Shown here: positions 23,029 to 28,008 of the stretch, one piece after another
Position numbering within the stretch: position 1 is the stretch's first letter
How the letters are laid out: every line of letters begins with the position of its first letter
Source of the DNA: a virus
Strand: one strand, 5' to 3'
UHGV virus genome: UHGV-0404561
DNA: 43,495 nucleotides
Program-made: the position numbers and the translations under genes
Notes under the pieces: model-generated
Databases searched by the model: none
What the model was told of the DNA's origin: nothing
What the model saw: the letters and a program-made list of their open reading frames with translations, nothing else

Positions 23029-23100
23029 CTCCGGCAGCCGGATTCGAACCAGCGCTATGAGAGTCAAAGTCTCATGCCTTAACCGCTTGGCAATGCCGAA
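23029..23100 (-). tRNA. tRNA-Gln (anticodon TTG)
   Basis: Manual fold: acceptor TTCGGCA/TGCCGGA (U1-A72), 3-bp D stem GCC/GGC, anticodon stem TGAGA/TCTCA with loop CTTTGAC, T-loop GGTTCGAATCC. Similar to Bacillus tRNA-Gln. No encoded CCA. Confidence 0.75.
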
Positions 23101-23172
23101 AGCTGATAGCCGGACTTGAACCGACAACATATTGATTACAAGTCAATTGTTCTTCCATTGAACTATACCAGC
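23101..23172 (-). tRNA. tRNA-Thr (anticodon TGT)
   Basis: Manual fold: acceptor GCTGGTA/TATCAGC, D arm GTTCAATGGAAGAAC, anticodon stem ATTGA/TCAAT with loop CTTGTAA, T arm GTCGGTTCAAGTCCGGC. Confidence 0.75.
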
Positions 23173-23176
23173 AAAA

Positions 23177-23250
23177 TGGACCGCCAGGGACTTGAACCCC
23201 GGACCACCCGGTTATGAGCCGGGCGCTCTGACCAGCTGAGCTAGCGGTCC
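23177..23250 (-). tRNA. tRNA-Met (anticodon CAT; elongator-type, tRNA-Ile2 not excluded)
   Basis: Manual fold: acceptor GGACCGC/GCGGTCC with G1-C72 paired (not initiator), anticodon stem CCCGG/CCGGG with loop CTCATAA, T-loop GGGGTTCAAGTCCC. Confidence 0.75.
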
Positions 23251-23253
23251 TAA

Positions 23254-23283
23254 AATGCCTGGCATGATTACATACCAGGCATT
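23254..23283 (-). terminator. Long hairpin (9-13 bp stem) immediately upstream of tRNA-Met on the minus strand, followed by TTTTA; a second short hairpin CTGCT-TAT-AGCAG + T-run lies at about 23315-23328
   Basis: The sequence aatgcctggcatgattacataccaggcatt is a near-perfect inverted repeat. On the minus strand it is followed by tttta, then the tRNA. Confidence 0.4.
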
Positions 23284-23577
23284 TACAAGTGGAAAAGAAA
23301 AACTCTGCTTATAGCAGCGGAATCCTCGCTGCGGTCGTAAGCCGCATTAACAGCCTATCAGCTACGAGGTGAAAGGAGGAAATTCAAGGCCAGTCAAAGC
23401 ACTTGAATTTTGATCTGGCAAGCGCACGCCGGAAATTTCATCCGCTTTTCAACCTCCAGGAATGGCCTGTTTATATTAAGGACGTGCGCGGGAGGTGTGT
23501 GAGAAAACCATGAAAAGTAACCAATCCTCTTCACATCTACATTCTACCATTTATCTATAAGTGCCTTGTCCACACAT

Positions 23578-24120
23578 CTACAGCATATCTCTAAGCTTAT
23601 CCACATAGCGCTTCACAAGATCGCGTTCTTCGCGGCATTCTGCGTCCTTTGACATATCACCGATTTCTGCCGTAAGCCCATCCAAGTGTTCCTCTAATGC
23701 GGCCAGCATTTTACGCTTACAGTCCTCTGATTTTCCGGATCGGTAGCTTTGCTTTTGAGTCATGTAATCATCATAAGCATCCCGTCCATCGCTCCGGCTG
23801 TAATGTCCACGCACATAATGCTCACCACGGCGCATATAGGATGATCCGCGGTCATAATCTGGCATTCGGCCATCAGAAGCGCTATAACGCCCCATGTTAT
23901 CACGTCCGCGGCGCTCGCTGTAGTCACCTACACGCATCTGTTCCAAAACGGTCATATAATACTCGCCCTTTTTATCCCAATACTCTGTGTTTTTAATGTC
24001 TTTATACATATCAATCAGCTTAAAAGCCGTGTCCAGATTGCCGGAGGTGAGGCCTTTTTCAGCAATGTTAGATATCTCATCTTCAATACGTGCACATAAA
24101 TCTTTAATATCTCTCATCAT
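23578..24120 (-). CDS. Hypothetical protein with R/G/Y/S/D-rich low-complexity centre (180 aa)
   Basis: ORF. Central RRGRDNMGRYSASDGRMPDYDRGSSYMRRGEHYVRGHYSRSDGRD segment. Structured termini. Confidence 0.5.
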   Translation of the reverse strand: MMRDIKDLCARIEDEISNIAEKGLTSGNLDTAFKLIDMYKDIKNTEYWDKKGEYYMTVLEQMRVGDYSERRGRDNMGRYSASDGRMPDYDRGSSYMRRGEHYVRGHYSRSDGRDAYDDYMTQKQSYRSGKSEDCKRKMLAALEEHLDGLTAEIGDMSKDAECREERDLVKRYVDKLRDML

Positions 24121-24129
24121 CCCACCTCC

Positions 24130-24552
24130 TTATGCTACCCGTGTTACCACAAGATTTGCATTTGCTACGGTGATAGCCTGGGTACTGGTATTCTCTACCG
24201 CAACATTAAAGCAGCATCCGCGCGGCACATCAATAAAGATTCCGGCAGATACGTTGTTAAACGCTTCTACCGCGGTCGGTGTGGAAATCATCTGGGACGA
24301 TAAGACAGGCTCACCGCCGATTGCAATAGCAAGAGAAATTGCTTCCGCTGTTCCTCCGGTCGGCACTGCGATATTCGCAGAAAAGCTAACAAAATAGCGG
24401 GCCTTGCACTGATTAGTCATTCCTCTGAGGGTAACAATGCCGCTGCCTTCCCGGTGCTGCACGCATGCGGTTCCTTTTACAGCGGTGTTGGTATACACCA
24501 CGTTTCCGTTTGCTGCCACTTCCTGAGCGGCAACAGCTAAATATTCAGCCAT
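24130..24552 (-). CDS. Small A/V/T/N-rich beta-rich protein, possibly BclA-C-terminal-domain / TNF-like fold (about 140 aa from MAEYLAV...)
   Basis: ATG at 24552 with RBS AAGGAG. Composition and the C-terminus ...ITVANANLVVTRVA are reminiscent of exosporium BclA C-terminal domains. This is a weak, by-eye assignment. Confidence 0.4.
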   Translation of the reverse strand: MAEYLAVAAQEVAANGNVVYTNTAVKGTACVQHREGSGIVTLRGMTNQCKARYFVSFSANIAVPTGGTAEAISLAIAIGGEPVLSSQMISTPTAVEAFNNVSAGIFIDVPRGCCFNVAVENTSTQAITVANANLVVTRVA

Positions 24553-26188: not shown

Positions 26189-26200
26189 TCTTCCTCTTTT

Positions 26201-26434
26201 TTATTTCATGCCGCCCAGCATCCGTTGAAACTGCTGTGCCATCTGCTGAGCCTGATCAAGCTGCGCCTGTGATATTCTGCCAGACTGCAACATCTTTTGT
26301 ACCTCAGCTTTTGGGTCTCCCTTAAAGTTTTGCTTAAACTGCGCAAACTGCTGCATCATCTGCATGGGGCCGTTGCCGCCCATCGGCATGCCGCCGAACA
26401 TTTGGAATAATGGGTTACTCATCTGCTGCCGCAC
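26201..26434 (-). CDS. Small Met/Gln-rich protein (77 aa)
   Basis: MRQQMSNPLFQMFGGMPMGGNGPMQMMQQFAQFKQ...AQQMAQQFQRMLGGMK. An extreme M/Q bias is visible directly. Confidence 0.45.
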   Translation of the reverse strand: MRQQMSNPLFQMFGGMPMGGNGPMQMMQQFAQFKQNFKGDPKAEVQKMLQSGRISQAQLDQAQQMAQQFQRMLGGMK

Positions 26435-26879
26435 CTCCCTTTGATCTCCGGCTCTCTGGTTTGGCAGTAGAGCCGCCGCTTGCTGGAAACGAATTTATCT
26501 TGTCCAGAATCTCATTGTATTTGTCAAAAAGGTCCTGGTACTCTTTACGGGTAACATACATATCATTCATGGCAGCTTCCGGTTGTTTCTGTGGCATTCT
26601 GCCGTTTATTTCGTGGTACTCAAATACGCGTAAAGGTTGCGGCATGCCGGATACATCCGTTGACTTGATGTAAAACCGCTCCGCTTCGCTGTCCATCAGC
26701 AGTACGCATGATCCGGGCGCAACAAGGTAAGACTTTGCCCCAGTCTCTCCCTGCACCCAGAGTATTCCTTGGTTATTTGTCGGTGCCATCGGCTGCGGGA
26801 TGGGCTGATATTGGTTCATCTGCGCCATACGATCCTGATACGGCTGGTATGGCTGATACATGTTCGGATATGCTGCCAT
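26415..26879 (-). CDS. Protein with Tyr/Gln/Pro-rich N-terminus (YQPYQPYQ...) and a small beta-rich domain (154 aa)
   Basis: N-terminus AAYPNMYQPYQPYQDRMAQMNQYQPIPQPM, then GILWVQGETGAKSYLVAPGSCVLLMDSEAERFYIKSTDV. The start may be at an internal Met. The 5' end overlaps the ORF 26773-26979. Confidence 0.45.
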   Translation of the reverse strand: MAAYPNMYQPYQPYQDRMAQMNQYQPIPQPMAPTNNQGILWVQGETGAKSYLVAPGSCVLLMDSEAERFYIKSTDVSGMPQPLRVFEYHEINGRMPQKQPEAAMNDMYVTRKEYQDLFDKYNEILDKINSFPASGGSTAKPESRRSKGGAAADE

Positions 26880-27039
26880 GTTCGATTTCCTCCAATTCTT
26901 CCAAAAAGATCAAAATATCGTGGTAATCGGTTTTTATAGGTATCTCTACCTCATCGTCATCGGAAAACATCTTCTTCATGCTTATATTTTGGCATAAAAA
27001 ATAAGCCCCTGACAGTTCGTCAAAGGCTCAATAAAGTAT

Positions 27040-27249
27040 CTATAAAGTTCTACATATGCGAATGATCTTTGAGTTTACCCGGCGGCTGATCCGTTTCGCG
27101 GTGGCAAGGCTCACATTCATGTTTTCTGCGCAGATCTCCATTGGCACGCCTGCGGCTCGGTATTCAAATAAAGCTCTTTCCTCTGGTGTAAAATTCGCAA
27201 GTTGCCGGAAGTGGTTTAGCTCCGGTACTGTAAAATCATACACTTTCAA
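27040..27249 (-). CDS. Small sigma-70 region-4 / LuxR-type HTH protein (69 aa), possible late-gene or accessory-gene regulator
   Basis: FTPEERALFEYRAAGVPMEICAENMNVSLATAKRISRRVNSKI resembles sigma region 4.2 / RinA-ArpU-like HTH. Confidence 0.5.
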   Translation of the reverse strand: MKVYDFTVPELNHFRQLANFTPEERALFEYRAAGVPMEICAENMNVSLATAKRISRRVNSKIIRICRTL

Positions 27250-27260
27250 GATAAGATTTA

Positions 27261-27602
27261 TTACCCCTCACTTTCTATCGGTTCATATGGCAGAGCCAAG
27301 CACCTGTTATAAAGGTCCTCACCTGTTCCATTACCTCCAAGTGCCTTGTATGGCCGAAACATATACTCAAGATTATCTCTGTCTTCCAAGGTACAATATT
27401 TCCTTTTTAAATAAAACGTACAAGCCTGATAAAGCCGATCATGGAGAAGTGCCAGAACTCCCGTATTAATAGCGTTTGTCCTAGCACGTTCCGTCTTCAG
27501 CTGTTTAGCCAATTTGTGATATGCTCGTGAAAGTACTACTGATATAAGCCCAAGCAGCCATGATACCCAGTTTGCTGTTATGTACTGTATAATCATTTCC
27601 AT
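27261..27602 (-). CDS. Membrane protein with one N-terminal TM helix (about 114 aa from MEMIIQY...)
   Basis: ATG at 27602 with strong RBS AAGGAG. TM WVSWLLGLISVVL followed by a basic helical region. Holin/antiholin-like but unassigned. Confidence 0.4.
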   Translation of the reverse strand: MEMIIQYITANWVSWLLGLISVVLSRAYHKLAKQLKTERARTNAINTGVLALLHDRLYQACTFYLKRKYCTLEDRDNLEYMFRPYKALGGNGTGEDLYNRCLALPYEPIESEG

Positions 27603-27612
27603 CGTATACTCC

Positions 27613-28008
27613 TTAGTTATGATCTTTCTCCCAGTAATATATAGGAATTTCTCCTCCACTATCCCAGGTATCGTATATATGGCCGTCCTGCACACAAACA
27701 ACATGGCCATCAATGCAAAGTATGTACGTCCCATGCTGATGCTCCGTGCAAAAATCAGCTACTGTATAGATATTTTGGGTATGATCGTCTATCATATGCC
27801 GTCGATATCCCTTTTCTTTTAGATATGCGCCCCATACGTAATTAGCACTTGGCATATCCGACAGCATACAAGCCTTTACCATGATGCCGGAGAAAACCGT
27901 TTCCCAGTCCTGCCCTGTTGCCTTACAGATGGCCCGGATAACGCAGTCACCTACGCGCTTACCGGCTGGATTCGGATTGTAATACTCCCACTCAACATCA
28001 TATTTCAT
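27613..28008 (-). CDS. Hypothetical protein with conserved Cys...His pattern (131 aa), possibly papain-like fold
   Basis: NPNPAGKRVGDCVIRAICKATG with downstream HGTYILCIDGHVVCVQDGHIYDTWD. Confidence 0.45.
   Translation of the reverse strand: MKYDVEWEYYNPNPAGKRVGDCVIRAICKATGQDWETVFSGIMVKACMLSDMPSANYVWGAYLKEKGYRRHMIDDHTQNIYTVADFCTEHQHGTYILCIDGHVVCVQDGHIYDTWDSGGEIPIYYWEKDHN

Follow-up and report, generated by a model that had tools for sequence, protein, structure and literature searches.

The virus genome UHGV-0404561, a gut prophage analyzed here as a single stretch of 43,495 nucleotides (the window), carries 5,060 bp of other material between two head genes, those encoding an SPP1 gp7-like minor capsid protein and the head scaffolding protein, and it is likely that this block is a composite: mainly a copy of a widespread mobile cassette, to which an HNH homing endonuclease gene, tRNAs and a structured RNA are joined, in four layers that differ in age. 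The minus strand of the window carries almost all of its genes, and in the direction of transcription the block separates the terminase, portal and gp7-like genes from those for the scaffold and the major capsid protein (MCP) (table 1). We define the block as the stretch between the gp7-like and scaffold genes and number its proteins i1 to i9 in the direction of transcription; the core cassette consists of i4-i5-i7-i8-i9, with i1 and i3 as frequent companions. A first-pass annotation of this DNA had recognized the block, and ARAGORN and Pfam place all of the features that it named where it had put them; its three tRNAs stand, but its ten extra genes reduce to nine protein genes, and it had overlooked a RAGATH-21 RNA and two terminator-like hairpins. 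All nine block proteins match a PHROG family (E values from 7e-4 for a small helix-turn-helix [HTH] protein to 1e-63), and the block genes are therefore recurrent phage genes and not chance open reading frames (ORFs).

An Old Insertion between Head Genes

The first-pass annotation regarded the block as an accessory island inside the late operon, on the premise that portal, gp7-like and scaffold genes are normally contiguous, and the comparison with relatives supports that reading. When IMG/VR was scanned with the gp7-like protein, 42 loci were obtained, and all window proteins were mapped onto them. In all 30 loci whose gp7-like protein is 83–100% identical to that of the window, i1, i3, i4, i5, i7, i8 and i9 lie in the same order between the head genes (one of them, L014, ends after i3 and so shows i1–i3 only), whereas in 12 of the 12 loci at 41–44% identity the gp7-like and scaffold genes are adjacent, with a gap of ~350 bp. 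Because the head genes of these more distant relatives lie side by side, the island is an insertion with respect to the canonical arrangement; the cassette that they lack recurs at other positions in unrelated backbones, as described below. The island is also found at the head position in Dulem virus 35 (64% identity) and in Enterocloster-type prophage contigs, which were reached via an i1 homologue named from [Clostridium] clostridioforme; the paper on C. clostridioforme prophages does not discuss the block.

Measured against five relatives, the ratio of nonsynonymous to synonymous divergence (dN/dS) is 0.01–0.22 for the island genes and 0.02–0.09 for portal, MCP and scaffold, and the synonymous divergence (dS) differs between cassette and flanks. 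These values, with the distribution among relatives, point to an island that is ancient, fixed in a broad lineage and under purifying selection comparable to that on the capsid genes; being old and strongly constrained, it is no recent passenger. A compositional difference from the backbone, which the first-pass annotation had proposed as a check, is visible at third codon positions: the GC content there (GC3) is 0.55–0.68 in i4, i5 and i7, compared with 0.37–0.50 in the backbone structural genes, and that of the HNH gene (0.30) falls below the backbone. The bulk GC content of island and backbone differs little, and a search for flanking direct repeats or attachment-like sites around the island gave chance-level repeats only. 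That annotation had also reserved its reading against the case that related phages uniformly carry the block with structural annotations; carriage is indeed uniform, but the structural annotation is not there, all of the genes being labeled “hypothetical.”

In relatives, the island junctions are hot spots for selfish elements: the i3/i4, i8/i9 and portal/gp7 junctions are occupied by genes of HNH-like, IS256-type transposase and Cas7-like kinds. The i3/i4 insertions (L013 12539–13189, L030 12348–14522 and L134 10016–11483) comprise an antisense HNH-like endonuclease of 217 amino acids (aa), an IS256-type transposase-like protein (413 aa, so called from the look of its N-terminal sequence alone) and a Cas7-like protein (PF05107). 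Most relatives also have one or two extra co-oriented genes at the portal/gp7 junction (L006, L008, L013, L020 and L023; e.g., L008 7149–9722), which encode a 274-aa protein starting MEMISNCGHDERGKY and a 410–580-aa protein and are absent from the window.

The Same Cassette in Unrelated Phage Backbones

The order of the cassette is kept in ~90 other phage and prophage loci of gut Firmicutes. When GenBank phages were searched with i7 and i8 (tblastn), both genes were found side by side in unrelated backbones. Butyrivibrio virus Ceridwen carries i1-i4-i5-i7-i8-(HNH-like gene)-i9 downstream of its endolysin, and Dulem virus 33 carries i3-i1-i4-i5-HNH-i7-i8-i9 between a PGRP lysin and the integrase. 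In bajarodcaudo virus 5 the cassette comes after the holin and lysin, in Dulem virus 36 directly after the receptor-binding protein and in Dulem virus 39 after the integrase. A 57-kb phage family shows the order integrase, attP, cassette, and its integrated copy abuts host genes at the prophage edge (precomputed gene calls). Scanning one genome for each species yielded 230 confirmed matches, of which 80 were examined (L050–L129). The order i4-i5-i7-(i8 or alt8)-i9 is conserved in these 80 loci, alt8 being an unrelated Cys-rich protein by which i8 is replaced in some cassettes, and i1 and/or i3 accompany it in about half. The phages and prophages that carry it are assigned to genomes of Lachnospiraceae, Oscillospiraceae, Ruminococcus and Erysipelotrichaceae/Bacilli.

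A census of the flanks of the 80 loci (Pfam on the two nearest large ORFs on each side) recovered ~20 endolysin or holin domain matches upstream, as against 5 for Phage_min_cap2, and downstream an integrase in 9 loci, a resolvase in 2 and Phage_scaffold in 3, with host genes on either side. The cassette thus resides most often at the junction of lysis genes and integrase, and the head-operon position of the window is a minority, lineage-specific placement. At every locus whose flanks were read, the cassette shares its strand with the late or structural genes beside it. Ceridwen was judged virulent by its authors and has no integrase or excisionase (PMC7372960), which favors a role in the lytic cycle over pure lysogenic conversion. 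Two further genes were seen near the cassette in other loci. A ~105-aa HExxH protein, absent from the window, directly follows it in ~14 loci (L052 3441–3758, L058 10203–10523 and L048 11186–11503 among them) and matches the metallopeptidase families DUF6782, M78 and SprT-like; a homologue of AgrB (accessory gene regulator B) is among the two nearest upstream ORFs in 3 of the loci L050–L129.

Recent Homing of an HNH Endonuclease into the Island

The plus-strand HNH homing endonuclease reported by the first-pass annotation (i6) is upheld by its domains, NUMOD4 (E 3e-13, 50.1 bits) and HNH_3 (E 1e-6, 28.3 bits), both above cutoffs, with NUMOD1 just below (20.9 bits); it also matches phrog_59 (E 2e-47) and the PADLOC model HEase (E 3e-32). 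Comparison of near-identical genomes shows that this gene is a very recent secondary invader that arrived by homing with co-conversion. Of 29 close relatives spanning the site, just 6 have it (L015, L018, L021, L026, L027 and L028), and the 23 that lack it all bear the island; in the latter, the insertion site aligns as a 50-bp i5/i7 spacer. Across 21000–30700 the window is 98–100% identical to the HNH-less L002 except for the ~685-bp insert, whose start directly follows the stop codon of i5, and for a brief converted stretch next to it. Between 25326 and 25482, at the 5' end of i7, the window shows ~45 differences from L002 and 3 from the HNH-carrying L018, and past 25266 it again matches L002. 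Since the HNH gene is missing from island-bearing relatives, including one nearly identical to the window, the island was in place before the gene entered it. An HNH gene of 62% identity occupies the same i5/i7 junction in Dulem virus 33, where the cassette has a different genome position, which suggests that the endonuclease targets the cassette itself.

The gene is preceded by a structured 5' leader (predicted fold −30.1 kcal/mol, z = −2.4) that is conserved with the HNH locus of Dulem virus 33, where the copy (L045 6982–7048) is an int-alpA RNA according to Rfam (46 vs. 35.8 bits). An int-alpA RNA upstream of the window gene was considered and rejected, Rfam giving no match there even in a 221-nt scan. 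Like other free-standing NUMOD HNH homing endonucleases (I-HmuI-like; the mob and seg genes of T4 are functional analogues), i6 shares the HNH_3+NUMOD4+NUMOD1 architecture, intergenic insertion, a patchy distribution among near-identical genomes, a co-conversion tract and a terminator of its own; unlike them, it is antisense to its host operon and has the structured leader just described, an int-alpA RNA by Rfam in the homologous locus.

A tRNA Slot and a RAGATH-21 RNA before the Scaffold Gene

The three tRNAs at the downstream end of the block score 57–69 bits against Rfam. tRNA-Met is present in 24 of 24 close relatives scanned (L001 and 23 of L002–L031), with tRNA-Thr and tRNA-Gln variable. 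Among the three island-less relatives scanned, the same gap holds a tRNA-Ile in L034, a tRNA-Lys in L042 and no tRNA in L043; because island-less relatives have a tRNA in this gap, the tRNA slot predates the island. Tailoring of tRNA-Gln(UUG) to the Gln-rich island proteins was considered and rejected, as CAA accounts for 0 of 20 Gln codons in i7 and 4 of 18 in i5. Methionine is enriched in i4, i5 and i9 (6.5–14%), and its company with tRNA-Met may be a coincidence.

Between i9 and tRNA-Met lies the RAGATH-21 RNA, which resembles the described motif (RF03097) in being a full-length match above the gathering score and in showing compensatory changes among homologues: its outer stem pairs GCGCACG with CGTGCGC in the window, GTACGTG with CACGTAT in L001 and GCACGCG with CGCGTGC in L046 (three distinct sequences only). 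A covariance model built from four RAGATH-21 copies found it in 24 of 83 sources searched, every match shortly 5' of the scaffold gene in phages with the cassette in the head operon, and nowhere among the island-less relatives or the cassettes at other positions in that set. In L133 the RNA stays beside the scaffold gene though three opposite-strand genes intervene before i9. This placement suggests that RAGATH-21 may be part of the scaffold–MCP transcription unit, as a processing, stabilizing or read-through element. The literature searched mentions neither the name RAGATH-21 nor the PHROG families of the cassette, and no function of the RNA, nor a position directly 5' of a phage scaffold gene beside tRNAs, was found in it. 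Other Rfam motifs were noted in other cassette phages, namely a RAGATH-18 RNA in Ceridwen (L044 1702–1774) and two type II hammerhead ribozymes in Dulem virus 39 (L048 12863–12930 and 15072–15136).

Proteins of the Block

The first block protein, i1, was one of two that the first-pass annotation had described as membrane or unknown proteins; it is instead predicted to be soluble, a cysteine peptidase of papain-like fold that has a Cys/His/Asp(Asn) triad. Residues D21, C22, H102 and D113 are invariant across 50 homologues, and the AlphaFold model has a mean confidence (pLDDT) of 93.6. Searches with C39 sequence models gave no match (Pfam at E ≤ 0.1, NCBIfam at E ≤ 1), and because the Pfam C39 model is unmatched we call i1 C39-like and not a member of that family. 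It differs from the peptidase C39 domains of PCAT/AMS transporters and from Josephin-type papain-like peptidases in being stand-alone, 131 aa long and without an ABC transporter. The second protein, i2, has a single N-terminal hydrophobic helix and is variable or replaced in relatives, in many of which tblastn identity drops to 47–54% or the match is lost; its start is probably at 27602 and not at 27734, since the longer ORF would overlap i1. The small HTH protein i3 matches Sigma70_r4_2 below threshold (13.5 bits against a cutoff of 25.7, E 0.058) and the sigma-factor family phrog_1190 with an E value of 7e-4; its positional counterpart in bajarodcaudo virus 5 (L047) exceeds the Pfam Sigma70_r4 cutoff (26.7 vs. 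24.1 bits).

Among the core proteins, i4 opens with a stretch rich in Y, Q and P, continues with a small beta-rich domain and closes with a helix; a GGAGG ribosome-binding site lies 8 nt upstream of its gene. A 68-aa ORF (MKKMFSDDDEVEIPIK...; 26773–26979, minus strand) begins in the i3/i4 spacer and runs, in a different frame, into the first part of i4. The short, helical and M/Q-rich i5 belongs to a subtype (A) that bears an N-terminal NP[LI]F..[LMF]GG motif and co-occurs with i1 across loci. In i7, a single transmembrane helix close to the N-terminus is followed by a Gly-rich linker, a helical region rich in N and Q, an invariant CCC motif and, at the C-terminus, a Cys-rich tail; its homologues form >7,400 clusters at 90% identity, none of which contains a Pfam domain, and its PADLOC match is a weak coiled-coil one to the tail of ZorA (E 8e-4). 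i9 has helical ends and an R/G/Y/D/S-rich center, and no Pfam family occurs among 55 homologues. For i4, i5, i7 and i9 we found no relatives in Pfam or NCBIfam, none of relevance in PADLOC and none among PDB sequences, and sequence-profile searches of the PDB gave nothing significant for i1, i4, i7, i8 and alt8. Signal peptides, as read from the sequences, are missing from four of the five core proteins (i4, i5, i8 and i9), the fifth, i7, being membrane-anchored.

The all-beta i8 may possibly be a jelly roll of the TNF/C1q/BclA C-terminal domain (CTD) type. Its AlphaFold2 model has eight strands at a pLDDT of only 52, from a shallow input alignment (78–95% identity), and the top Foldseek matches (OX40L, the F-BclA CTD 9h38, BclA 3tyj and 4-1BBL) are weak (E 0.014–0.13, TM-score ~0.5). 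It resembles those jelly rolls in size (~140 aa, with the start probably at 24552) and in secondary structure, but differs in having no collagen-like stalk, no sequence-family match, a single domain and a low-confidence model; Pfam and NCBIfam gave no match, and the best PDB profile match (E 0.031) is to a chain of an unrelated exoprotein. Members of the family are stand-alone without exception: none of the best 150 of 762 representatives is longer than 196 aa or has a collagen-like region. Divergent homology between i8 and alt8 was tried and found unsupported (hhalign probability 0.3%). A defense or anti-defense role was likewise rejected, a PADLOC scan having matched the HNH gene alone (HEase model) and otherwise nothing relevant.

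Other Features of the Window

The coordinates of the block and its head-gene flanks are collected in table 1. The terminase ORF contains Terminase_2, the small-subunit domain, at residues 3–128, followed by the large-subunit domains Terminase_3 and Terminase_3C; in L133 and L134 the terminase is encoded by two overlapping genes (132 and 419 aa), and the single ORF of the window is either a true fusion or a frameshift difference. Elsewhere, the window encodes an M15/VanY endolysin with choline-binding repeats (7634–8434), an integrase (3536–4816) and a holin (19659–19928, minus strand; PF16079 Phage_holin_5_2, E 1e-24). The holin lies in a gene group between MCP and the tail module, ~11 kb from the endolysin, a placement that has its equivalent in the Enterocloster-type L133 and in Dulem virus 35. 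The cassette as the lysis module of the phage was ruled out, given the separate endolysin and holin, and because the window has its own endolysin and integrase the cassette is no replacement for the lysin. Adjoining the lysis region is a 543-aa protein (5648–7279, minus strand) in which three Cro/C1-type HTH domains stand in tandem; such a size is unusual for an XRE-type regulator.

Table 1. Features of the block and its flanks in the window, in order of position.
Feature	Position	Strand	Evidence
MCP	21089-22297	-	
Head scaffolding protein, 211 aa; downstream flank	22317-22952	-	PF06810 Phage_scaffold, E 2.7e-22; phrog_194
tRNA-Gln(ttg)	23028-23101	-	ARAGORN
tRNA-Thr(tgt)	23101-23172	-	ARAGORN
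tRNA-Met(cat)	23177-23250	-	ARAGORN
RAGATH-21 RNA, i9/tRNA-Met interval	23421-23490 (Rfam match); 23415-23496 (motif)	-	Rfam RF03097, 79 bits vs. gathering 70.3, model positions 1-76/76
i9, 180 aa	23578-24120	-	phrog_28802, E 6e-63
i8, probably 140 aa, all-beta	24130-24552	-	phrog_20016, E 4e-57
Terminator-like hairpin, i7/i8 interval	24583-24600	-	
i7, 258 aa, membrane-anchored	24690-25466	-	phrog_16490, E 1e-56
Co-conversion tract (i5/i7 spacer remnant and first 47-67 codons of i7)	25266-25515	-	
Secondary insertion, ~685 bp, bearing the HNH gene	25516-26200		
Structured 5' leader of the HNH gene	25530-25636	+	
i6, free-standing HNH homing endonuclease, 183 aa, antisense to operon	25637-26188	+	
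Terminator of i6	26177-26196		
i5, 77 aa, subtype A	26201-26434	-	phrog_22984, E 5e-25
i4, 154 aa	26415-26879	-	phrog_21718, E 8e-38
Terminator-like hairpin, 13-bp stem and T-run, directly 3' of i3 (i3/i4 junction)	27002-27030	-	
i3, 69 aa, sigma-70 region-4-type HTH	27040-27249	-	
i2, ~113 aa (probable start)	27261-27602	-	phrog_4105, E 1e-32 (residues 56-152 of long ORF)
i1, predicted stand-alone C39-like papain-like cysteine peptidase, 131 aa	27613-28008	-	
SPP1 gp7-like minor capsid protein 2, 405 aa; upstream flank	28013-29230	-	PF06152 Phage_min_cap2, E 9.5e-71, full length
Portal	29238-30665	-	
Terminase, 541 aa	30665-32290	-	Terminase_2 and Terminase_3 domains within a single ORF

Assembly of the Block and Possible Role of the Cassette

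The four layers of the block can be ordered as follows. The oldest is the tRNA slot between the gp7-like and scaffold genes. Upstream of this slot, an ancestor of the lineage probably captured the mobile cassette (the region-4-type HTH, the C39-like peptidase, i4, i5, i7, i8 and i9), which has been kept since under purifying selection; in most other carriers it stands at the far end of the late operon. RAGATH-21, 5' of the scaffold gene, perhaps aids the expression or processing of the scaffold–MCP message downstream of the interruption. The third layer is the use of the island junctions by selfish elements in relatives, and the fourth and very recent one the homing of the HNH gene into the i5/i7 spacer, which co-converted the first 50–65 codons of i7.

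As to function, we favor, with low confidence, an accessory module that stays out of the virion and is expressed together with the late genes. In this model i7, presumably bitopic, would tether the soluble i4, i5, i8 and i9 as an assembly to the cytoplasmic membrane, and one component would be matured by the i1 peptidase (the N-terminal motif of subtype A i5, ending in GG, is a candidate substrate). The site of action would be the cell envelope in late infection, with a part in the control of lysis or exit or in exclusion. A bolder version, which we entertain only tentatively and think rather doubtful, is that the core cassette, with either i8 or alt8 and with an optional C39-like or HExxH peptidase and region-4-type HTH, represents an undescribed system of gut Firmicutes phages: a membrane-anchored, protease-matured assembly of low-complexity proteins and a small jelly-roll protein. 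Such a system may have thousands of members, its Q/N-, M/Q- and R/G/Y-rich proteins may be prion- or condensate-like, and it may act late at the envelope or as an intracellular organizing structure, in which case it would be no decoration protein, toxin, defense system or other known type of moron. No discussion of the function of the cassette was found in the literature searched.

Several points limit this account. The direction of the event, insertion here and not loss in the relatives at 41–44% identity, is taken from parsimony; the role given to RAGATH-21 is conjectural; and the functional model draws on position, composition and one predicted fold. Promoter-like sites within the island number 13, with 14.3 expected from shuffled sequence, and none stands above chance. 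The proposal for the GG motif as substrate is weak because i1 is absent from about half of the cassettes and because Ceridwen, which has i1, has an i5 without the motif.

It is unlikely, though it deserves a full hearing, that the cassette serves lysogenic conversion as a moron, being switched on in the prophage by an HTH regulator of its own and altering the surface or fitness of the lysogen. Its commonest position, from the lysis genes to the integrase or attachment site or at a prophage edge, is the classical moron slot, the small HTH and the terminator-like hairpins accompany it, and the offset in GC3, the movement as a module between backbones and the difference in dS between cassette and flanks speak for it; however, it is present in a phage regarded as virulent (PMC7372960) and shares the strand of adjacent late or structural genes wherever flanks were read. 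The operon that surrounds it here should be silent in a lysogen, the promoter signal does not exceed chance and most of the core proteins (four of the five) lack signal peptides, all of which argues against this explanation.

We consider it improbable that the block is structural after all, with the cassette proteins associated with the virion as head decoration, head fiber or internal (ejection) proteins. Most carriers have the cassette outside structural modules, after lysis genes or at an integrase or prophage edge, and relatives with homologous portal, gp7-like, scaffold and head-completion proteins do without it. Moreover, i7 is a membrane protein, i4, i5 and i9 are of low complexity, i8 can be exchanged for an unrelated protein, and nothing in PHROG, Pfam or the PDB links the cassette to structural families. 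These observations must be set against its co-oriented place in the head morphogenesis operon just before scaffold and MCP, its retention in every member of the lineage at dN/dS values like those of capsid genes, its position directly after the receptor-binding protein in Dulem virus 36 and the fold of i8, perhaps a jelly roll, which is common in decoration and fiber-tip proteins.

The mechanism offered in the first-pass annotation, in which a homing endonuclease or recombination at tRNA genes brought in the whole island, is very improbable. The presence of an HNH gene and three tRNAs within the block invites it, HNH-type genes recur at several cassette junctions in other loci and the HNH gene demonstrably drags flanking sequence with it; but the island is present in the 23 of 29 relatives without the gene, the difference from L002 amounts to the insert and a tract of 150–250 bp, far below 5 kb, the tRNA slot is already there in island-less relatives and the island has no flanking direct repeats. 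The HNH part of this reading is contradicted by these findings, the tRNA part less clearly so. Scarcely credible, finally, is the idea that the cassette encodes spore-coat, exosporium or appendage-like proteins that modify host spores: although its Q-, Cys- and Tyr-rich and TNF-like proteins have compositions that we take to resemble those of GerQ, CotY/ExsY, CotG and BclA, i8 shows weak fold matches to BclA and F-BclA C-terminal domains and a GerE-family HTH lies near the cassette in one phage, there is no NCBIfam or Pfam match to sporulation families even at E ≤ 1, i8 has no collagen-like region and the cassette also occurs in phages of Butyrivibrio and Lachnospira, genera not known to form spores.

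Relation to Known Systems and Significance

The flanks of the block follow the SPP1-type head cluster (portal gp6, gp7, scaffold gp11 and MCP gp13) in their families (PF06152 and PF06810) and in their order. Genes 7 and 11 of SPP1 are themselves separated by a few small ORFs. The window differs from this cluster in that its gp7-like and scaffold genes are non-adjacent, with 5 kb containing nine genes, three tRNAs and a structured RNA between them, and in that the terminase small-subunit domain shares one ORF with the large subunit. Compared with morons and accessory modules (those of HK97 and lambda, and the lysis–integrase cassettes of Firmicutes phages), the block is alike in consisting of extra genes between conserved neighbors, present or absent among relatives, and the cassette in being exchanged between backbones, in its usual place between lysis genes and attachment site and in its compositional offset. 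It differs from them in comprising five to seven conserved genes and not one or two, in being co-stranded with late genes at the loci read, in its location here in a head operon and its occurrence in a phage regarded as virulent, and in the lack of a detected promoter of its own. In kind, the block is a moron-like mobile cassette with a homing endonuclease, both known phenomena; the capture of a widespread, uncharacterized cassette family in a head operon, together with RAGATH-21, is an unusual variant.

The block shows how a foreign multigene module can become a permanent part of a phage structural operon that goes on working, and it is a clean natural example of homing-endonuclease co-conversion between gut phages. 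The placement before the scaffold gene gives RAGATH-21, an orphan motif, a defined and testable context. Above all, it draws attention to a cassette that is very abundant, conserved in gene order, moves between three canonical genome slots and attracts selfish elements, and since Butyrivibrio phage Ceridwen is in culture, the function of this cassette can be tested directly.

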